Below the pieces are notes generated by a model. It saw only the letters and a list, made by a program, of their open reading frames with translations. It was not told the origin of the DNA and ran no database searches. Below, in pieces: positions 14,033 through 44,330 of a stretch of 44,330 nt of DNA. Both the position numbers and the translations under genes were made by a program. The stretch comes from a virus. Location of the stretch: IMG/VR virus record IMGVR_UViG_3300010384_000013. One strand, 5' to 3'. Every line of letters begins with the position of its first letter. Within the stretch, counting starts at the first letter, position 1.

Positions 14033-14469
14033 CAGAGCCTCTTTTCGTAAACGACTGCCGTGGGCTGATAGCCGCATGGCAGCAAATGCGCCGTCCAACC
14101 GCTGGTTGCCTTACCCGTTGAGCGCCCGATAAGCTTCGATGTCTCGGCGCCCTGTTCCCTTGCCCAAGCCTCGATTTCAGCGAGGAGAGGCATGCACTTC
14201 CTGAGCTTTGAGCCGCCGACTTCAGCTAGCAGGAGCTGCTTCTTGCCTGTGGCATTAGTGGTGACAATTTCCGTGATCGGCGCCAGGACGACGCGACCGT
14301 TTTCGATGCATATCCAGAGCTGGCGCTTTCCTTGAGCGCATTCCGCGATGATGTTTTCGACGGTTTCGTCTGGGAACTTGGCGCAGTATGTTTCCAGGCA
14401 GCGCACGATGTCGGGCCAGTATGGCTGCATCTCCTCCGCGCTCATGCCGGAAGTCAGGCGGATTTCCAT
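14032..14469 (-). CDS. hypothetical protein (structural operon)
   Basis: ATG 14469 (MEIRLTSGMSAEEMQPYWPDI...) overlaps the HNH gene stop (TAATG). 145 aa. Confidence 0.7.
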   Translation of the reverse strand: MEIRLTSGMSAEEMQPYWPDIVRCLETYCAKFPDETVENIIAECAQGKRQLWICIENGRVVLAPITEIVTTNATGKKQLLLAEVGGSKLRKCMPLLAEIEAWAREQGAETSKLIGRSTGKATSGWTAHLLPCGYQPTAVVYEKRL

Positions 14470-14996
14470 TAGGCCGCGCTGCTGTCGAACCATGCCACGA
14501 ACCGAGGCACTGGCTGAAACGTGTGATACTTGGCTTTCCCGGCTAGATAGAGCTGATATGCTTCTTCTGGCGTCTTGCGGTAGCCGAGGCTGATTTCGCG
14601 CCTATTGACTGTTATTCGCGCCTGCCAAGAGTTGCAGTTGGCATGCCATTTTACGCCCGGATACCCACTCGTATTGTTCTTCCGCTTACGAAGGTTCTGG
14701 CTGTTCTCCGCAACGGTCGCTTCCCTCAGGTTTTCGATACGGTTGTCGTCGGGAACGCCGTTGATGTGATCAATGCAGGCTTTCGGCCATTCGCCATAGA
14801 CATACAGCCATGCAAGCCGATGCTCGGCCACATGCTTATTGCGCTTCAGGCAGATTTGTCGGTAGCCCTTACTGTCATAATATCCGGCCCTATCTCCCTT
14901 GCGGCATCCGACTCTTGATTTTGCCCATGAAAAAACCCCGGTTGAAGGGTCATAATCAAGTAGCTCTTTTGCTAATTCTTGTGTAATTTCAATCAC
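14469..14996 (-). CDS. HNH homing endonuclease with AP2-type DNA-binding domain
   Basis: AEHRLAWLYVYGEWPKACIDHINGVPDDNRIENLREAT (HNH_3 pattern), followed by SGYPGVKWHANCNSWQARITVNRREISLGY (AP2 pattern). Locally lower GC. Paralog of 31342..31941. Confidence 0.85.
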   Translation of the reverse strand: MIEITQELAKELLDYDPSTGVFSWAKSRVGCRKGDRAGYYDSKGYRQICLKRNKHVAEHRLAWLYVYGEWPKACIDHINGVPDDNRIENLREATVAENSQNLRKRKNNTSGYPGVKWHANCNSWQARITVNRREISLGYRKTPEEAYQLYLAGKAKYHTFQPVPRFVAWFDSSAA

Positions 14997-24840: not shown

Positions 24841-25539
24841 CTACCCTGCTGCCTTCAGAAATTCAAATGGAACGGTGATTGTCTCGTTTGCGGCTTCAAG
24901 ATTGTTGAGCAGCACACGCACCTGATCCTGATCATTCCAGGCCTGCACTGTGGCTTCGCGGCCTATCTTGTCGCCCCAGATGAGTTTGACCTCCTTGCCA
25001 GGGAATAGCTTCTTGCGAGCGGCTCGGATGATGTGTTTGCGCTTCTCGCGCACGAGCCGTTCGTTGGCTTTACTCAGGCTCTCTGCCTTGGCCTTGGCGG
25101 CCGCCTTACTGCTTTGTTCGAACATGCGGAGGCGGAACAGATCGATCGGGCTGATGGCGAACGGCTTGCCGCAGTTATCCACCACGCCATGAACACCAAC
25201 CACGTCGTAGAGCCTATACCAATCCGCGTCATTCGCCACCTCTACGAACATGTAGCCCTTGAGCATGGCGAAGCGGCGCAACTCGTATAGACCGGCTTTC
25301 TGGCGATTGCGGACAGCCAGGTATTCCGCCGGCATGTAATGGACGAAGCCAGCGTCATCGAGATTGGCCTCTATCTTAGTGCGGCTGGGATCTAGCTCCG
25401 ACGCTATGGTGTATCCCCTGCCACGCGCATGGCCATTGATAGCCGAGATGCTGGGCACTGGCCACCGCTCACGATGCGGAGACTGAAAGCCTGGCATCGT
25501 CCTAATTGCGAACCATAGCGGCGTTGCTGCCTTGGTCAT
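24841..25539 (-). CDS. NusG/RfaH-like transcription antitermination factor paralog (NGN + KOW)
   Basis: ATG 25539 is preceded by GGAG. It has the WFAIRTMPGFQ start, the LKGYMFVEVANDADWYRLYDVVGVHGVV NGN core, and the C-terminal KOW-like GKEVKLIWGDKIGREATVQAWNDQDQVRVLL. Confidence 0.75.
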   Translation of the reverse strand: MTKAATPLWFAIRTMPGFQSPHRERWPVPSISAINGHARGRGYTIASELDPSRTKIEANLDDAGFVHYMPAEYLAVRNRQKAGLYELRRFAMLKGYMFVEVANDADWYRLYDVVGVHGVVDNCGKPFAISPIDLFRLRMFEQSSKAAAKAKAESLSKANERLVREKRKHIIRAARKKLFPGKEVKLIWGDKIGREATVQAWNDQDQVRVLLNNLEAANETITVPFEFLKAAG

Positions 25540-25549
25540 GGTGTCTCCG

Positions 25550-25735
25550 CTAGTCGTGCCAGTTCCATGGAATATAGATGCGGCCCGAGTTGTACTCGAC
25601 GATCTCCAAGAGAACGGTGGCGATACCAACCTCGCCAATGCGCTTCTCGATGGCCTTTAGCTTCTTCGCCTTTTTGGTCTCTTCTTCACGGCGTTCTGCT
25701 TCGACATCCACCATTTCAGATCGATAATGACCCAT
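25550..25735 (-). CDS. hypothetical protein (61 aa)
   Basis: ATG 25735 is preceded by GAGGGTGAG. Sequence MGHYRSEMVDVEAERREEETKKAKK... Confidence 0.55.
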   Translation of the reverse strand: MGHYRSEMVDVEAERREEETKKAKKLKAIEKRIGEVGIATVLLEIVEYNSGRIYIPWNWHD

Positions 25736-26221: not shown

Positions 26222-26596
26222 TCACCCCTCCCGCTTCTGCGCTTCCCAATCCTGCAGGAACTTGGGCTTGTAGTTGCTGAGCGGCTTCATCTGGACGACG
26301 TTCTCCGCCCGAGCTGCTAGGCGAGCCTGGTACTCACGTTCCTTGTCTGCCCAATCGAGGTAGGATTCCTTGTTGAGCCATGAAGCTGCGAGGGGGATGT
26401 ATGGCTTGTCCCGTTCGGGCATGTCGCGCAGGAAGGCTTTGGCGCCGTCCAAGATGTCCTCCGGCGATGCTCCGGACAGGATGTGCTTGCGGTAGGCGTC
26501 TCGCGCGTCCTTGCGCCCATCTGTGCGGCGCATGTGAGGGCGCCAGTAACTCCAGAACAGATCGAAGCCCTCTGGATCGTTTTCTCTGGTTTTCAT
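26222..26596 (-). CDS. hypothetical protein (124 aa)
   Basis: ATG 26596 overlaps the stop of 26593..27120 (ATGA). Sequence MKTRENDPEGFDLFWSYWRPHMRR... Confidence 0.65.
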   Translation of the reverse strand: MKTRENDPEGFDLFWSYWRPHMRRTDGRKDARDAYRKHILSGASPEDILDGAKAFLRDMPERDKPYIPLAASWLNKESYLDWADKEREYQARLAARAENVVQMKPLSNYKPKFLQDWEAQKREG

Positions 26597-27120
26597 GCTG
26601 CTTCCCTCCTCCGCAAAGCGAGAGCAGCTAAGACAAAGTAGGCAATGATGCTCATCCAAGCCTTGCCGATTACCTGGCCGGCAATGAAGTCGAGAGACCC
26701 GAACGCCAGCCAGAGGAACAGCGCGCTGTCGACAACTGACCCGACAATTCCGCCGGCCAGGATGGCGCGGCCGATGCTATTCCGCCTCAGTGGCGTGTAA
26801 ACCAGCATGTTCGCCAATTCAGCGAAGACAAACGCTGATACCGAAGCCACAACAAGTGCCGGCGGTGCGACGAACCAGGAAACCAGCCCTCCAATCGCCA
26901 CAGCAAGAACAGCTGCCCGAGTGCCTGAGATTTGTTGGATGACGTCGCGAAGGACCATCGCGGCGCCAATCATCAGAACGCCCGATGGAGCATTAAAGCC
27001 GAAGCCTACCGGAATAATGCATGGTCCATTGGGAATGCATTCTGTCCCCACATGGCCGATGAGCCAGTTCGCGACCGGGATAGTTGCGGCAAAGGCCGCA
27101 ATCAGGACAGCGGTCCTCAT
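26593..27120 (-). CDS. VUT/YhhQ-family (DUF165) queuosine-precursor (preQ0/preQ1) transporter homolog
   Basis: 175-aa polytopic membrane protein. VSAFVFAELANMLVYTPLRRNSIGRAILAGGIVGSVVDSALFLWLAF parallels E. coli YhhQ ASFMAYALGQILDVHVFNRLR...STLFGNVSDTLAFFFIAF. Confidence 0.7.
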   Translation of the reverse strand: MRTAVLIAAFAATIPVANWLIGHVGTECIPNGPCIIPVGFGFNAPSGVLMIGAAMVLRDVIQQISGTRAAVLAVAIGGLVSWFVAPPALVVASVSAFVFAELANMLVYTPLRRNSIGRAILAGGIVGSVVDSALFLWLAFGSLDFIAGQVIGKAWMSIIAYFVLAALALRRREAA

Positions 27121-27515
27121 GCCAGTTTCTCCCGAATATAGGTGACGGCGCTCTCAAAAGAGGTAGAAACGGCGTGCGAATGATAGAGCAGCCAAGGCGA
27201 AAGGCCCTGCTTGCCCCACTTCGAAACGACGACAATGAGTTTCCCTCGCTCCCAGGCGTAGAGAACTTCCATGCTGGTGCCGACCGAGGGTTTGTCATAG
27301 TTGACGATGATGGCGTCGGAATTCATCACGTCGATCTTGTCGAATTCCACGATCTCGTTGACGCTTTCGTGCTCCTTGCCTCGATAGTCTTGCCGCATTG
27401 GATCTAGCGTTGGGCCGTCCCAGAGGCCCTTGACGAGCTCGCGCCAGTCCTTGCATTCCTCGTCGGTGCAGCCGTTGATCGGCCCGCAAAGATAAATGGT
27501 CTTAGGCTGCGTCAT
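27117..27515 (-). CDS. nucleoside 2-deoxyribosyltransferase-like protein
   Basis: TIYLCGPINGC N-terminus and SVGTSMEVLYAWERGKLIVV (acidic catalytic-type motif). 132 aa. Coupled on both sides. Confidence 0.65.
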   Translation of the reverse strand: MTQPKTIYLCGPINGCTDEECKDWRELVKGLWDGPTLDPMRQDYRGKEHESVNEIVEFDKIDVMNSDAIIVNYDKPSVGTSMEVLYAWERGKLIVVVSKWGKQGLSPWLLYHSHAVSTSFESAVTYIREKLA

Positions 27516-28194
27516 CGAACATGTCCTTTTGCTGGGGGCGCATGGCCCATTTGATCGGGCATTGAACGGCGTCGATCCGGCGAGCCATCCGCTCTGGGTC
27601 TACTTCCTGTCCGACATTCTTGAAATTTCGGGCAACGTTCGTGCTATCGACGGAGGCGAACGGCCACCTATCACCAGAAAGCGCCATGCCGCGAAGCATG
27701 TGGATGGCGGCTTTCGAACCGACGCGCTCCAAAGCATTGAACGCTTCGTCGGCGCGGCGACACCATAAATCCGAACCGACTTGCCAATATTGTTTCGAGG
27801 ACCCGAAGCAGATGCGCGGCCATGTTTCGGCAAGCTCCAAGAGATAGGAGATATCGAGCCCCATGTGCCACACAGGGGCGCCATACCAGACGCCATGGGG
27901 CCAGGAAGCGACCATGGCCCGCTGCTGCTCAATCGAGCCGTCTATAACGTCCGGAATTACCGCCCAATGATAGAAGCCTAGCCTCGGCTCAAGCCAGGCG
28001 TAGAAGGCATTCCAATCAACTTGGCGGCCCTGAGTGTGAGCGGTGAACGCGCCGCTATCCCACATCACGGATTGCCCGTTCTGGAGGCACCAATCGGCGT
28101 CCCGCGCGTCCGCGAAGGAAACGCAGAAGTTCTTACCCGCAAGCTTTACGAGCTCTGAGCGCGGCGAGATTGGTGTACCGTGATAATGGATCAC
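27502..28194 (-). CDS. dpdA: DpdA-like (TGT-superfamily) DNA 7-deazaguanine transglycosylase candidate
   Basis: GTG 28194 is preceded by GAGGGA. MWDSGAFT matches the DSG(G/A)F catalytic motif of TGT/DpdA. 230 aa. It is in an operon with a YhhQ homolog. Confidence 0.6.
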   Translation of the reverse strand: MIHYHGTPISPRSELVKLAGKNFCVSFADARDADWCLQNGQSVMWDSGAFTAHTQGRQVDWNAFYAWLEPRLGFYHWAVIPDVIDGSIEQQRAMVASWPHGVWYGAPVWHMGLDISYLLELAETWPRICFGSSKQYWQVGSDLWCRRADEAFNALERVGSKAAIHMLRGMALSGDRWPFASVDSTNVARNFKNVGQEVDPERMARRIDAVQCPIKWAMRPQQKDMFDDAA

Positions 28195-28238: not shown

Positions 28239-28595
28239 CTAGGCGGCTTCCAGAATTACGCGGACGGCCCCGCCTTTGACTGGTGTGTCACGGCGAATGG
28301 TTGTCTCGAACCGGCTGTCATCGATGCCGAGCGCGTCCGCCACGCCATCTCGGAACGCCTTCACTGAACTGATTAGGTTGTCGTCGTCCCTGCGGCGCTT
28401 GTCGGGCTCCTGGAATACCCAGGTCACCTTAAGCTTGCCGGGAATGTCGAAATCGCCGGGACGAATGCCGGCTTCGCGAACACACCATCCCGCCACCTGA
28501 CGTGCATGCTTGGCGTCCCTCGCCTTGCGGCTCCAGTGAACGCGGGCATTGGGCGAGAGGCTGCGCGGCGGCCATGGAAGCGTGATGGCAATCAT
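28239..28595 (-). CDS. rusA: RusA Holliday-junction resolvase
   Basis: ITLPWPPRSLSPNAR... and PDKRRRDDDNL match E. coli RusA (ITLPWPPSNN, PDRRRRDLDNL). Confidence 0.9.
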   Translation of the reverse strand: MIAITLPWPPRSLSPNARVHWSRKARDAKHARQVAGWCVREAGIRPGDFDIPGKLKVTWVFQEPDKRRRDDDNLISSVKAFRDGVADALGIDDSRFETTIRRDTPVKGGAVRVILEAA

Positions 28596-29356
28596 GCGGC
28601 CTCCAAATGAGAGAGGATGGCGCGGCCAATCATTTCCGGGATTTTGGGAACTACCGAATTTCCAAGGGCGGCAATTTCGTCCACCCTGGCGGAAATCCCA
28701 TCATTCGCACGTAGGCGGCCAAAATTAGCGGGCGGTCCACTCCTAATGCGGCGAGCGCCGACGAGGGACCAGACACGCTTGAACCCTTGTTCCACACCTT
28801 CATCATAGAAGACGCTGGGAAGCAGAATTCTATCGCGCACCCTTTCCGTGGGGTTGGCAATAATCCACACTCTGTCACGTCCGTGCGGGGCACCAACACA
28901 GGAAGCTGGAACGCAATGCCATTCCGCGTCATACCCGATCTCGGCCAAGTCTCCGAGTACTCTGCCAAACCAAGCTCCCCGGTCACCAGCAAGCAGGTTT
29001 GTGACGTTTTCCATGATTGCGAAGTCTGGTCGTAGTTCGCCAATGAGGCGGCATAGTTCACTCCAGAGGCCGCTGCGCGCGCCAGTGATCCCCGCACCCT
29101 TCCCTGCGCTTGAGAGGTCTTGGCATGGAAACCCGCCGCAGATGACATCAACCCCGGAAATTCCATCTGCCTGAAGGCGTCCGGCTGTAAGCTCTCTAAC
29201 ATCATGGTAGCAAGGAACCTCAGGCCAATGTTTCCCCAGCACGCGGCGGGGGAATTCCTCGATCTCGCAGAAGGCAACGGTCTTGAATCCACCCGTGCGT
29301 TCCAGCCCGAGCGAGAAGCCCCCGATACCGCTGAAAAGGTCGAGCACGCGCAGCAT
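28592..29356 (-). CDS. DNA (cytosine-5)-methyltransferase, short form
   Basis: Motifs DLFSGIGGFSLG (I), GGFPCQDLS (IV), ENV (VI) and GNSVVP (X). The start is ATG 29356 (coupled, MLRVLDLF) or ATG 29374. Confidence 0.88.
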   Translation of the reverse strand: MLRVLDLFSGIGGFSLGLERTGGFKTVAFCEIEEFPRRVLGKHWPEVPCYHDVRELTAGRLQADGISGVDVICGGFPCQDLSSAGKGAGITGARSGLWSELCRLIGELRPDFAIMENVTNLLAGDRGAWFGRVLGDLAEIGYDAEWHCVPASCVGAPHGRDRVWIIANPTERVRDRILLPSVFYDEGVEQGFKRVWSLVGARRIRSGPPANFGRLRANDGISARVDEIAALGNSVVPKIPEMIGRAILSHLEAA

Positions 29357-29517
29357 CAGCCGAAATGCCTCCACACCGCACAGGCAGCAGCAATGAGGCC
29401 CATGCTAAGGACGATGACAGGCCAGCCATAGCCAAGGAACCAGAGAGGGTATTTCGTCTCTGGCTCTTCGGGGTAGTCTAGGCCTTGTATGCGGCGGATC
29501 ATGTCTTCGGTGAGCAT
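29356..29517 (-). CDS. small membrane protein (53 aa, below the ORF-track cutoff)
   Basis: MLTEDMIRRIQGLDYPEEPETKYPLWFLGYGWPVIVLSMGLIAAACAVWRHFG. Its stop overlaps the methyltransferase ATG (TGATG). Confidence 0.45.
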   Translation of the reverse strand: MLTEDMIRRIQGLDYPEEPETKYPLWFLGYGWPVIVLSMGLIAAACAVWRHFG

Positions 29518-30600: not shown

Positions 30601-31077
30601 TCAATCGACCCATCCCCAAGTTTTGCCACTGATCACTGCCGAGATGTTGGATTCTGACACGTGGAATTGTTTGGCTATCGCGGCGCATGTAGCCGTTTGC
30701 CTAAGGAGCCGGATCTGGCGGATATTGTCAGCCGTTAGCTTCGCCCGAGCAATTTGCTCGCCACGCAGAACGGTATTGTGGAGGTATTTGTCTTGAGAGT
30801 TCTCGAATGGGGTAGCCCACCGAAGATGCTTTGGATTGACACATGAGGGGCGTCCGCAAGAGTGCGCCGCTTCATGGTTTTTCGACGGAGACGGCCCGTG
30901 CACTGTATGGCAAACGAGCCGCGTTATACGCCAACGCTTCCCGTCGAAATCCCCAACCCCATAGCCCTTTAAATCAGTCGCGTATGGCCAATGTAGGCAC
31001 GCTGACGTGTTCGATGAGATCGCCATAAGAATGAACTCGCGGATAGATCCGCGTTTTGGATACGGCTTCCTAGGCAT
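30601..31077 (-). CDS. HNH endonuclease with C-terminal HTH
   Basis: AAHSCGRPSCVNPKHLRWATPFENSQD is an HNH pattern. The C-terminus is IAKQFHVSESNISAVISGKTW. Locally lower GC. Confidence 0.8.
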   Translation of the reverse strand: MPRKPYPKRGSIREFILMAISSNTSACLHWPYATDLKGYGVGDFDGKRWRITRLVCHTVHGPSPSKNHEAAHSCGRPSCVNPKHLRWATPFENSQDKYLHNTVLRGEQIARAKLTADNIRQIRLLRQTATCAAIAKQFHVSESNISAVISGKTWGWVD

Positions 31078-31341: not shown

Positions 31342-31941
31342 TCATGCCGCTTCTGCTCCATGGTTTGGATGGAACCCAAGCGAGGCTTCGGCCTGCTTGC
31401 GAGCGGCTATGGCAGCATCAAAGTCCTTGAAACGGCCGACTGCGCGAACTTTGCCTGACGCATGTATCGAGACAACCCAGTCTTGCCGCGTCTGGCACCA
31501 TGAGACGCCAGTCACGCCACTCGTGTTGTTGGAATTCCTAGAGCGGTTTTTCTGGTTCTCCAGGACACCAACATCGCGAAGATTAGAAATACGATTATCG
31601 GAACGAAGGTGATTTATATGATCGATTTGCTCAGGCCAGACGCCATGGACCATAAGCCAAGCGAGCCGGTGAGCCCTGTATTCACGCGAGTCTATGGCGA
31701 TGCGCACGTAACCTTCGCCGTCAATCCTGCCGGCTTTTTTCCCGGCGAACCTAGCGTTCCAAATCTTCCACCCGCGTTCAGAGGCAGTGGCGCTAAGACA
31801 CGCAGTCCTTTCTCGCCATGTGAAAGCTCCGGTCTCGGGATTGTAATCGAGGAGGTCGCGAACCAACCGCGCTAACTCGGCGGGTTTACGGTGCTGAGGA
31901 ACAACGCGCGTCGGTGATGAGGTGTTGGCTGCGAGGATCAT
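31342..31941 (-). CDS. HNH homing endonuclease with AP2 domain (paralog of 14469..14996)
   Basis: RAHRLAWLMVHGVWPEQIDHINHLRSDNRISNLRD, followed by SGVTGVSWCQTRQDWVVSIHASGKVRAVGRF. Confidence 0.85.
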   Translation of the reverse strand: MILAANTSSPTRVVPQHRKPAELARLVRDLLDYNPETGAFTWRERTACLSATASERGWKIWNARFAGKKAGRIDGEGYVRIAIDSREYRAHRLAWLMVHGVWPEQIDHINHLRSDNRISNLRDVGVLENQKNRSRNSNNTSGVTGVSWCQTRQDWVVSIHASGKVRAVGRFKDFDAAIAARKQAEASLGFHPNHGAEAA

Positions 31942-38690: not shown

Positions 38691-39698
38691 ATGAGCAAGC
38701 ACAAACCACTGGAAGCTCTTGCCCGCGCATTCGACAAGGAAGATGCAGCACAGCGCGGCGAGCCCGATCCCTGGAAGGATGCTGAAGACGATGCCGAATG
38801 GGTGTCGGAACGGCTTGCCTGCGCTCATGTCGCGGCCGAAGCATATCTCGCCGCCCGTTCCACCGTACCGGAAGCGGGGAAGGCGGTGGACGAGTTCTGC
38901 GGACATGGAGCTTTGCGCGTCGCCTGCCCTTATTGCAAAACCACTGCAAACTTCTCTATCGCATCCGTCCCAGCACCATCCGGAGCGGAGCCTACCGCCG
39001 ACCAAGAACTGCAAGAAGTTGCCGATGGCGCTTGGGGTGATGGTCCTATGCGTCGCCGCGCTGCGTTCGTGGAGATCGAACGTCGAGCTACTGTCGAGCG
39101 TGCCAAGGCCGCTGCTCCACAGGCGGTACCGGCAGAGGATGTGGCGAAGCTGGTGGAGAGACTGAATAGCATCGCCGAGGATCAGCGTGAATACGGGAGT
39201 GGGTCAACCGTCATTCCCGACGCGCTAACCGAAGCCGCTGCCGCGCTCACCAGCCTCTCTGCACGACTGGCCACCGCAGAAACGGCCCGCTACGTCGCCG
39301 CAACCAACTATCTCGACCTTGTCAAGTACAAGGAGCACCTCAAAGCAGAAGCCACCTCCCTGCGCAGGGAGGTGGATGAGGGCATCGAGCCGTATTTCGC
39401 TCGCCAGATTGAATGGTCGCGGGAAACGTTCGGGCCAGCGCTGCGCACCCACGGCGTCATCGACCACATCCGCAAGGAACTCACCGAGATCGAGGCCGAT
39501 CCGCACGACTTGTCCGAATGGATCGACGTCGTGATCTTGGCAATGGATGGCTTCTGGAGGCATGGCGGCTCCGCTGCCGATCTGATGCCGCGCCTGCTGG
39601 CTAAGCAACAGAAGAACATGGCGCGCTCGTGGCCTGACTGGCGCACGATGAGCGAGGATCAAGCCATTGAGCACAACCGAGCAGGAGCCTCCGAATGA
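38691..39698 (+). CDS. protein with C-terminal DUF550 (MazG/MazZ-like dATP/dGTP pyrophosphohydrolase-type) domain
   Basis: C-terminal WSRETFGP...HGVIDHIRKELTEIEADPHDLSEWIDVVILAMDGFWRHG...LAKQQKNMARSWPDW. The N-terminal ~200 aa are of unknown function. Confidence 0.7.
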   Translation: MSKHKPLEALARAFDKEDAAQRGEPDPWKDAEDDAEWVSERLACAHVAAEAYLAARSTVPEAGKAVDEFCGHGALRVACPYCKTTANFSIASVPAPSGAEPTADQELQEVADGAWGDGPMRRRAAFVEIERRATVERAKAAAPQAVPAEDVAKLVERLNSIAEDQREYGSGSTVIPDALTEAAAALTSLSARLATAETARYVAATNYLDLVKYKEHLKAEATSLRREVDEGIEPYFARQIEWSRETFGPALRTHGVIDHIRKELTEIEADPHDLSEWIDVVILAMDGFWRHGGSAADLMPRLLAKQQKNMARSWPDWRTMSEDQAIEHNRAGASE

Positions 39699-40434: not shown

Positions 40435-40625
40435 GCATCGAGCGGGAGCTGTGCCCTGTTTGTCTCGTGCCTTTCAAGCCAGATGATATCTGCTCAACGG
40501 ATATCGAATTGGGCACATGCCACGCTGAATGCCTCAAGGGCTGTCCAACGGTCGATCTGAACACGGGAGAGCCGATAGACGGACCCATCCCGACATATCG
40601 CTACGACGAGGACGATCATGATTAG
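40431..40625 (+). CDS. small zinc-ribbon-like protein (64 aa)
   Basis: ATG 40431 (ATGA overlap). Motifs CPVC ... CHAEC. Confidence 0.55.
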   Translation: MSIERELCPVCLVPFKPDDICSTDIELGTCHAECLKGCPTVDLNTGEPIDGPIPTYRYDEDDHD

Positions 40626-40989
40626 TCTGACTACCCCCTCGGAGCCACGAGTAATTTATTTGAGCGGCCCGATTAGCGGCATGCCGGAGAAAAATCACCC
40701 GCTGTTTATGAGCGTGGCCAGCCAGCTCCGCGCCGCTGGACATCGGGTCTATAACCCTCGCGAATTTTGCTGGACCGAAGGGGTTTTCCCGAAACGCAGA
40801 GCATTCGCTGAATATTGCGCATTCATATGCGGCGAAGCAACGACCATCGTCATGCTTCCTGGCTGGCAAAAGTCAAAGGGCGCCACCACAGAACGCGGCC
40901 TTGCTGAAAACTGCGGCCTTGAAATCATCGAGTGGACCGAGCCTCAGGATACGTTCCTGATTGCAGATGATGTGGGAGGCGGGCCATGA
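40618..40989 (+). CDS. DUF4406-type (nucleoside 2-deoxyribosyltransferase-like fold) protein
   Basis: VIYLSGPISGMPEKNHPLF...GHRVYNP...LPGWQKSKGATTERGLAENCGLEI. Confidence 0.65.
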   Translation: MISLTTPSEPRVIYLSGPISGMPEKNHPLFMSVASQLRAAGHRVYNPREFCWTEGVFPKRRAFAEYCAFICGEATTIVMLPGWQKSKGATTERGLAENCGLEIIEWTEPQDTFLIADDVGGGP

Positions 40990-44098: not shown

Positions 44099-44330
44099 AT
44101 GAGCGAAGAGATGATGCAGACCGGCTACGAAACCCGCGAAGAAATGATCCGCGACCATTGGAAGCGCTACGGCTACCATTGGGATGTGGAGAAGTGGCCG
44201 CGCCTAAAGCTGCCGATCCGGAACAAGGCATACCCGTTCATGGCTTTGGTCCAAAATGGCGATGCTGGTGTCCAGCCTGAAATCGCACTGGAATATAGCT
44301 TCCATCGCGGCACTCTCGATGGTCGTCCAG
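44099..44330 (+). CDS. hypothetical protein, N-terminal part (continues across the contig junction to 105)
   Basis: ATG 44099 (MSEEMMQTGYETREEMIRDHWKRYGYHWDVEKW...). There is no stop before the contig end, and the frame continues in 1..105. Confidence 0.55.
   Translation, partial: MSEEMMQTGYETREEMIRDHWKRYGYHWDVEKWPRLKLPIRNKAYPFMALVQNGDAGVQPEIALEYSFHRGTLDGRP
44276..44330. repeat. 55-bp terminal direct repeat, identical to 1..55
   Basis: Exact duplicate of the first 55 bases of the window. Confidence 0.95.

Follow-up and report, generated by a model that had tools for sequence, protein, structure and literature searches.

A short DpdA-like transglycosylase, a YhhQ-like protein and an interposed deoxyribosyltransferase-like protein in a temperate phage: a putative salvage-dependent 7-deazaguanine DNA modification module

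The 7-deazaguanine modification of DNA is a major anti-restriction strategy of phages, and its current parts list comprises DpdA, the pathway for preQ0 (7-cyano-7-deazaguanine) and a set of tailoring enzymes. The viral DNA analysed here, IMG/VR record IMGVR_UViG_3300010384_000013 (44,330 nt in all, referred to below as the window), raises the question of what a nucleoside 2'-deoxyribosyltransferase (NDT)-like gene might do between a DpdA-like gene and a gene for a YhhQ-like membrane protein. An earlier note, made from the sequence alone, had read the three as a salvage-based 7-deazaguanine module, and the three co-directional, overlapping open reading frames (ORFs) lie on the minus strand at 26593-28194 exactly as it had placed them. 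It appears that the outer two genes form a conserved pair and that the middle gene belongs to a family which recurs beside DpdA in many viruses. The whole explanation considered here, in which DpdA and the YhhQ-like protein are accompanied by an NDT-like enzyme working at the level of nucleotides, is slightly favoured.

The first gene (27502..28194, minus strand) begins with GTG and encodes 230 amino acids (aa), with MWDSGAFT at residues 44-51. Judging from profile and motif comparisons, its product is very likely a DpdA-family transglycosylase from a genuine but divergent short subfamily. It matches PHROG 887, 'queuine tRNA-ribosyltransferase', at 2e-43, and in tblastn searches it is 29-33% identical, over 76-99% of the query, to proteins of Salmonella phages 7-11, BTP1 and SPN3UB, of which 7-11 was placed in a 'DpdA-only' group (Hutinet et al. 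2019, PMC6884629). Since searches of the PDB returned either chance matches or generic TIM barrels, membership was established through BFVD and through an intermediate alignment of recognised phage DpdAs (A4), which includes phiLM21 gp25 (PF23859, 2.4e-43) and the DpdA of viral locus L008 (PF23859, 4e-20). Aligned with A4 by hhalign, the alignment of the short family (A3) scores 97% probability (E 1.1e-10, 145 columns), and the A4 profile in turn matches PDB entry 7ui4, the Salmonella DNA-guanine transglycosylase, at 1.2e-7. The AlphaFold2 model of the 230-aa protein is a beta/alpha barrel of eight alternating strands and helices (predicted local distance difference test score, pLDDT, 75.9). 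Foldseek found 21 matches to it in BFVD at E<=1e-3, and the named ones are mostly phage 'queuine tRNA-ribosyltransferase' models (6e-7 to 1e-4). The comparison of profiles and structures with DpdA subfamilies that the earlier note had called for therefore bears out its assignment of the protein to the TGT superfamily, as do the conserved Asp, His and Phe motifs.

In Salmonella DpdA, the catalytic or invariant residues are Asp95 (general acid/base), Phe99, Asp130, His181 and Asp256 (nucleophile); Phe99 has a gating role, and Asp130 and His181 recognise the base (Gedara et al., PMC10164549). Among 35 members of the short family, WD46SGAF50, D82, H110, H165 and D183-S184 are invariant, and D46, F50, H110 and D183 of the 230-aa protein correspond to Asp95, Phe99, His181 and Asp256, respectively. 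The segments W-D46-S-G-A-F50 and S-V-D183-S-T align with DSGAF and SxDSxxW of phage DpdAs and with DCGAF and SIDST of 7ui4, and H110 (VWHMG) aligns with an HG motif in the profile alignments. The invariant D82 (IPDV) is assigned to Asp130 by position; this correspondence is less certain, as the segment forms an insertion or is poorly aligned in the profile alignments. It should be noted that the protein, described earlier as short, does have only 230 residues but is not truncated, because 225-235 aa is the norm in a family of at least 6042 matching proteins. Among the family matches listed, lengths range from 212 to 245 aa and none has a Pfam domain; 'hypothetical' is the name given to the listed members from Mesorhizobium, Ensifer, Agrobacterium, Rhizobium, Shinella and Sinorhizobium. 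The subfamily is thus an unannotated newcomer to the known DpdA superfamily. With more than 6000 DpdA-like proteins apparently passing as 'hypothetical' and lacking a Pfam domain, genome mining probably undercounts 7-deazaguanine systems.

The third gene (26593..27120, minus strand) encodes a 175-aa protein whose membership of the YhhQ/Vut_1 family, as originally proposed, is upheld by a PF02592 score of 33.7 bits (cut-off 27.2) and by a hydropathy profile with about five clear hydrophobic segments and one weaker one, as in a multi-pass membrane protein. It also matches PHROG 4899, a family of unknown function, over its full length (7.6e-36). Among the 80 IMG/VR loci that resemble the window's DpdA most closely, a YhhQ-like gene lies directly beside the short DpdA 73 times (91%), in either order, and the DpdA-YhhQ pair is likewise present in the cultured Sinorhizobium phage phiLM21, Rhizobium phage RHph_N3_2 and Pseudanabaena phage Pam5. 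By its family and its linkage to DpdA, the 175-aa protein most likely imports a free 7-deazaguanine base.

Where might this base come from? The window appears to hold no gene for making it, as the earlier note had also concluded: jackhmmer searches of all its ORFs with QueC, QueD, QueE and FolE seeds from phages Erebus and ZHS gave no match, and a Pfam scan of its non-structural ORFs of at least 100 aa returned integrase, S24 repressor, RecT, terminase, lysozyme, HNH endonucleases, a PF04447 domain and a DUF4406 protein but no FolE, QueD, QueE or QueC. None of these four genes occurs within 6 kb of DpdA in any of the 80 short-DpdA loci either. As the phage lacks FolE, QueD, QueE and QueC, its base would be host-made or taken up, and we consider such dependence likely, in agreement with the precursor supply first suggested for this locus. 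Indeed, the pairing of DpdA with YhhQ, conserved in 73 of the 80 loci, makes a salvage- or host-dependent 7-deazaguanine module the best reading. The salvage idea itself is not new and was essentially anticipated for DpdA-only phages, some of them with YhhQ; these phages were proposed to use host preQ0 or uptake, and YhhQ was found to be uncorrelated with any phage group (Hutinet 2019, PMC6884629). The near-obligate pairing in the short subfamily does go beyond that statement. The DpdA-YhhQ pair defines a minimal two-gene salvage module that would, in principle, be transferable to other hosts.

A second sample of the short-DpdA family, comprising 38 clusters, is more mixed: YhhQ is the only partner in 11, QueD/QueE occur in 8, an NDT gene in 3, and none of these in 16. 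Because the partner genes differ between loci, the short DpdA may be seen as a core to which varying supply and accessory genes are joined. Some members in loci L251, L252, L257, L279, L286, L287, L295 and L300 adjoin QueE and/or QueD, and no QueC was found in the 6-kb flanks of these loci. Short DpdAs in such a setting may insert 7-carboxy-7-deazaguanine (CDG) or another base that precedes preQ0.

The middle gene (27117..27515, minus strand) encodes a 132-aa protein, which the earlier note had correctly taken to be NDT-like: it scores 32.4 bits with PF05014 (1.1e-7; cut-off 28.8), and its AlphaFold2 model (pLDDT 92.6) has the NDT fold. The best Foldseek match in the PDB is a Desulfotalea NDT, 7o62 (template modelling score 0.74-0.80, E 6e-7), followed by DNPH1, MilB and YtoQ. 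The family profile aligns best with rat DNPH1/Rcl, weakly (E 0.075) and at about 15-20% identity. In this alignment, Y8, D59, S77, G79 and E83 fall on DNPH1 Tyr13, Asp69, Ser87, Gly89 and Glu93, and G11-P-I-N-G15 is placed on the backbone loop Ile18-Gly20. Glu93 is the catalytic nucleophile of DNPH1, and its counterpart E83, within a G-x-x-x-E motif, is invariant in the NDT-like family. An invariant S106-P-W is, by sequence alone, a candidate for Ser117', the phosphate-binding serine that DNPH1 draws from the partner subunit. Where DNPH1 has Arg19, the family has Asn, and it also has invariant motifs of its own (W24-R25, D38-P39-M40, D43-Y44-R45-G46, S106-P107-W108 and Y111-H112-x-H114).

These residues bear on whether the substrate is a nucleoside or a nucleotide. 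True nucleoside transferases have an Asp that binds the 5'-hydroxyl (Asp92 in Lactobacillus leichmannii NDT) and insert the carboxylate of their C-terminal Tyr into the active site of the neighbouring subunit. In a tentative comparison with a Lactobacillus sequence, to be taken as a lead only, Ser77 stands at the position of Asp92 and the C-terminus is not conserved. In DNPH1, the 5'-phosphate is held by Ser87, Gly89 and the Ile18-Gly20 backbone, Glu93 touches the ribose, and the enzyme favours purine deoxynucleoside monophosphates (dNMPs), among which dGMP has the lowest Km (PMC3834327). Because the phosphate-binding Ser and Gly of DNPH1 are kept and the transferase Asp position is occupied by Ser77, we infer that the 132-aa protein would act on a phosphorylated substrate. 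This sits well with the initial suggestion that the middle gene lies outside the canonical pathway and may act at the nucleotide level, as the protein retains a phosphate-binding Ser of the DNPH1 type and also the catalytic Glu.

What the NDT-like gene has to do with DpdA is best seen across genomes. The family has at least 1584 homologs, and a census was made of 80 IMG/VR viral loci found with the NDT alignment (69 after collapse at 90% identity). A DpdA homolog is present in 58 of the 80 loci and in 50 of the 69 non-redundant ones, and in 44 of the 69 it is directly adjacent (upstream in 32, downstream in 18). As a control, viral loci were collected with the window's other NDT-superfamily gene, of the DUF4406 type (40618-40989); DpdA occurs in 0 of these 26 (Fisher's exact p ~1e-11 against the NDT loci). 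The DpdAs that adjoin NDT belong to at least four subgroups, namely the short family, relatives of about 250 aa, the Erebus/ZHS type and the PF23859 type. A Pseudochrobactrum prophage has the same trio of 230-aa protein, NDT and Vut_1, metagenomic phages have it with a 237-aa protein, and some phages lack a transporter and have NDT directly upstream of a PF23859 DpdA. In the commonest arrangement, NDT is beside DpdA while a transporter and Que genes are both missing; Que genes occur in 9 loci of the census and a YhhQ-like gene in 9. The NDT-like gene is not confined to salvage, since homologs also lie inside de novo preQ0 clusters: in Aminobacter phage Erebus between QueD and FolE (QueE-x-QueC-QueD-NDT-FolE...DpdA), and in Edwardsiella phage vB_EpM_ZHS four genes after QueC-FolE-DpdA. 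That NDT accompanies DpdA regardless of where the base comes from points to a step or housekeeping function that the current pathway lacks, be it recycling of the base, sanitation of the pools, the clearing of competing guanine or insertion at the nucleotide level. It is somewhat more likely than not that the NDT-like protein has a function in the DpdA pathway.

The window itself represents a rarer, three-gene combination, and the NDT gene looks as if it had been inserted into a DpdA-YhhQ pair; in RHph_N3_2, DpdA and the VUT gene overlap by 4 nt with no NDT between them. Direct fusions of NDT to DpdA were also considered and rejected, as the long 'NDT' ORFs of loci L077, L049, L091 and L067 are over-extended ORFs in DNA of high GC content. 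The sole real NDT fusion, unrelated to DpdA, is found in a Bathyarchaeia metagenome-assembled genome (L203:5184-6245), where an NDT-family domain (ISGPIQG...PKPSVGTSME) is C-terminal to a part that, judged by eye, resembles a glycerophosphodiester phosphodiesterase. In four viral loci that lack DpdA (L051:8451-9689, as well as L052, L053 and L067), the NDT homolog has as neighbours an exonuclease-like gene and a gene whose product contains an IMPDH/GMP-reductase domain (PF00478, 2e-68); this setting hints at a link with guanine-nucleotide metabolism. Anti-defence-type genes also occur near NDT homologs, either without DpdA or with the trio: Apyc1-like (anti-Pycsar), DruA-like and Tad2-like (L043:8496-9458; L039:8717-9472; L005:7539-7754). 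Because of such neighbours, the NDT-like gene may be said to tend towards counter-defence neighbourhoods.

Taken together, these comparisons suggest the following scheme. The short DpdA, as a TIM-barrel transglycosylase, would act after replication and swap guanine in the phage DNA for a preQ0-type base by way of a covalent Asp-DNA intermediate; its homology and catalytic motifs are evident, and its activity and the identity of the base are predictions. The resulting 7-deazaguanine would protect the DNA from restriction. The free base would be imported by the YhhQ-like protein or supplied by the host. The NDT-like enzyme may act on 5'-monophosphates of guanine- or 7-deazaguanine-type (deoxy)nucleosides, freeing and recycling 7-deazaguanine from nucleotides, which would feed DpdA and keep such nucleotides out of the pools. 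This would be a third supply or housekeeping route besides import and de novo synthesis. Such a base-releasing role, drawn by analogy with the sanitation of 5-hydroxymethyl-deoxyuridine monophosphate (hmdUMP) by DNPH1, is possible but doubtful. While comparative genomics ties the protein to DpdA, its substrate and the direction of its reaction are uncertain predictions. More broadly, we tentatively propose, at a little under even confidence, that the NDT/DNPH1-like protein is an unrecognised, widely conserved nucleotide-level accessory of phage 7-deazaguanine systems, one that either liberates base for DpdA or makes deoxy-preQ0 (dPreQ0) nucleotides by exchange.

Several observations weigh against this scheme. 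With respect to the middle gene, the glycosidic bonds of 7-deazapurines are chemically difficult to break, which bears on the base-releasing role in particular, and as the top structural match, 7o62, is a true nucleoside 2'-deoxyribosyltransferase, the substrate might also be a nucleoside. Approximately 28% of the viral NDT loci have no DpdA nearby, and in cellular genomes DpdA is near 4 of 29 NDT homologs and not near the other 25. NDT is also a minority partner of the short DpdA, being found in 3 of the 80 loci and in 3 of the 38 clusters. As for DpdA, the 230-aa protein has no match at E<=1 among the Pfam and NCBIfam families, PF23859 (DpdA) and PF01702 (TGT) included. Its model is weak after residue 170, the C-terminal 60 residues being of low confidence, and Foldseek against the PDB gives generic TIM barrels alone (E >=2e-3), the 50 best matches containing no TGT; PDB sequence and family-profile searches yielded only chance matches. 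The PF02592 match of the YhhQ-like protein covers just residues 82-166 (profile positions 61-143 of 152), that is, the C-terminal half, and its score with TIGR00697, 'queuosine precursor transporter', is 31.8 bits, below the equivalog cut-off of 50.95. Finally, DpdA-only phages that were tested had little or no modification: in 7-11, about 0.02% of G is present as dADG (2'-deoxy-7-amido-7-deazaguanosine), and Orion is unmodified.

The figures for Orion and 7-11 would be explained if the module were silent or did not act on DNA, that is, if the short DpdA were inactive, worked on tRNA or lacked a partner, and the YhhQ-like protein, which stays under the NCBIfam equivalog cut-off, transported something else or served as a membrane or exclusion protein. 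Bacterial DpdA does require the DpdB ATPase (PMC10164549), and none is encoded at this locus. However, the DpdA of phage 9g alone puts dPreQ0 into DNA in E. coli (PMC6884629), the catalytic residues are invariant in the 35 members compared from a family of more than 6000 under evident selection, and a 91% pairing with the YhhQ family would be difficult to account for unless the two proteins shared a substrate. We therefore regard a silent module as very unlikely. It is also conceivable that only the middle gene is foreign to the module, as a general nucleotide-salvage, pool-sanitising or anti-defence gene that happens to share an early-gene neighbourhood. DpdA does not adjoin the distant homologs of Moorella phage MTATph1 and Natrialba phage PhiCh1, nor 25 of the 29 homologs from cellular genomes, around which no conserved neighbours were found; NDT is missing from most short-DpdA cassettes, and some loci without DpdA put it by Apyc1-like, DruA-like or DNA methylase genes. 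This explanation is nonetheless improbable given that the adjacency to DpdA recurs in 44 of the 69 non-redundant loci, in both orders, and spans at least four DpdA subgroups in salvage as well as de novo contexts, that the 14-nt overlap with DpdA is conserved, and that the control gave 0/26.

Two further explanations accept the link with DpdA and differ in the reaction. The NDT-like protein might, as a (phospho)deoxyribosyltransferase, put preQ0 in place of the base in a dNMP or deoxynucleoside, the resulting dPreQ0 nucleotides passing through kinases to the polymerase and so into DNA, with DpdA only topping up or proofreading. Its NDT fold, conserved Glu nucleophile and closest structure, a transferase, would suit such a pre-replicative route, and a 7-deaza base is chemically feasible as an acceptor. 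The NDT gene is near DNA polymerase and sliding-clamp genes in ZHS, Erebus and L008, and 'undetected 2'-deoxyribosyltransferases' were allowed for by Hutinet 2019 (PMC6884629). All of these loci, however, also carry DpdA, which is sufficient for insertion in tested systems (PMC6884629); the known 7-deazaguanine DNA modifications are all post-replicative, as Cui 2023 argues; no dedicated kinase is linked to the NDT gene; and the window's dATP/dGTP pyrophosphohydrolase-like gene is unlinked to NDT loci (0/80). Although we judge this route unlikely, base exchange by an NDT-like enzyme would, if true, reopen the question of a pre-replicative route alongside DpdA. Alternatively, the enzyme might handle ordinary guanine nucleotides and not touch 7-deazaguanine compounds at all, either clearing away free guanine, which would compete with scarce preQ0 for the covalent DpdA intermediate, or tuning dGMP/GMP pools. 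The linkage to DpdA would then be accounted for whatever the base source, and the IMPDH/GMP-reductase-domain neighbour in the four DpdA-less loci as well as the Km of DNPH1, best for dGMP (PMC3834327), would fit. Plain hydrolysis of dGMP, on the other hand, would increase free guanine. By our reasoning, the guanine that DpdA releases should also be small relative to the pools, and we judge guanine handling unlikely. The preferred explanation remains a post-replicative DpdA with a transporter and a nucleotide-level NDT-like accessory.

How far is this module different from systems already described? The DpdA-only phages 7-11, BTP1 and SPN3UB (PMC6884629) resemble it in having a homologous DpdA and no preQ0 genes of their own, in the host preQ0 or uptake proposed for them and, in some, in YhhQ. 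The present system differs in that its DpdA belongs to a shorter subfamily (225-235 aa) that escapes PF23859 and PF01702 and is nearly always paired with YhhQ, and in that an NDT gene has been inserted. Closer in layout are phiLM21 gp25-gp26, RHph_N3_2 054-055 and Pam5 30-28, in which DpdA is followed by a DUF165/VUT gene of 175-177 aa in the replication region, in phages of related or similar hosts. The DpdAs of RHph_N3_2 and Pam5 are 47-49% identical to that of the window, whereas the phiLM21 protein is of the PF23859 type and 274 aa long. None of the three has an NDT-like gene, and Pam5 has an unrelated 86-aa ORF in its place. The DpdA of the Salmonella Montevideo Dpd system (7ui4; PMC10164549) shares the superfamily, the catalytic Asp pair, the gating Phe and, less certainly, the base-binding Asp and His; it is, however, about twice as long (7ui4 chain A has 436 residues), has DNA-binding insertions, depends on the DpdB ATPase and acts together with DpdC-K, and none of these partners is present in the window.

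The NDT-like protein, in turn, shares with DNPH1/Rcl and the PF05014 transferases the fold and the Tyr, Asp and Glu, and with DNPH1 the phosphate-binding Ser and Gly. It differs from DNPH1 in its low identity (~15-20%), in Asn for Arg19, in invariant motifs of its own with no mappable counterpart, and in its association, which is with DpdA and not with hmdUMP sanitation. A survey of the QueC family (Biochem J 2026) describes PfkB-PF05014 fusions by QueC-like 'cluster 4' proteins, which is another case of an NDT domain recurring with 7-deazaguanine-type enzymology. Compared by description only, that case is bacterial, involves fusion to a sugar/nucleoside kinase and a QueC paralog of unknown substrate, and has no DpdA. 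It is the closest report in a literature search of incomplete coverage, in which no paper linking a PF05014-type protein to DpdA was found. Thus, the new part is the linkage of NDT to DpdA, together with the pairing of short DpdA and YhhQ; the idea of salvage by DpdA and a transporter has already been published.

The layout of the locus gives some idea of how the module is expressed. The genes had been described as three ATGA-coupled genes, which is true of the NDT/YhhQ junction (27117..27120) but not of the DpdA/NDT junction, where the DpdA stop and the NDT start overlap by 14 nt (27502..27515); an ATGA string is present there, with its TGA out of the DpdA frame. The identical 14-nt overlap is found in the related loci L003 and L005. 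A further ATGA overlap (26593..26596) joins the YhhQ-like gene to the next gene downstream, which begins MKTREND... at an ATG at 26596 inside the ORF 26222..26659 and weakly matches a replication-initiation domain (PHROG 270, 2.8e-9). Directly upstream and in the same direction as DpdA lie a RusA-like resolvase gene (28239..28595, minus strand; PHROG 34, 1.4e-21) and a gene for a C5 cytosine DNA methyltransferase (28592..29374, minus strand; PF00145 4.3e-43, PHROG 363 6.3e-70), the latter being a second DNA-modification gene, two genes upstream of DpdA. A promoter and terminator scan of 25.5-30.5 kb gave nothing that exceeds shuffled background. Because the genes are co-directional and no promoter- or terminator-like site above background breaks the block, the three are read as a translationally coupled segment within one long early/replication operon. 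A methylation-related sanitation role for the NDT-like enzyme was considered and set aside, as a homolog of the C5 methyltransferase occurs in just 7 of the 80 NDT loci.

The phage has a circular genome of 44,275 bp: bases 1-55 of the window are identical to 44276-44330, and the assembly is therefore circularly closed. Its temperate-phage gene set, with integrase, S24 repressor, RecT and terminase, was judged complete. The second NDT-superfamily gene, used above as the control, lies on the plus strand and encodes a DUF4406 protein with VIYLSGPISG (PF14359 1.9e-19; PHROG 355, 'nucleoside 2-deoxyribosyltransferase', 3.8e-22). On the same strand, a 335-aa protein encoded at 38691-39698 has a PF04447 dATP/dGTP pyrophosphohydrolase domain at residues 239-329; MazZ-like feeding, in which it would supply dGMP to the NDT-like enzyme, was rejected, as 0 of the 80 NDT loci have a homolog. 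Three genes on the minus strand (14469-14996, 30601-31077 and 31342-31941) resemble homing endonucleases of the HNH_3 type, and one of them sits within the structural gene block. Just downstream of the terminase genes, a minus-strand ORF of 265 aa (24841-25638) contains a NusG-like domain (PF02357, 5.5e-6) and is possibly a phage transcription antiterminator.

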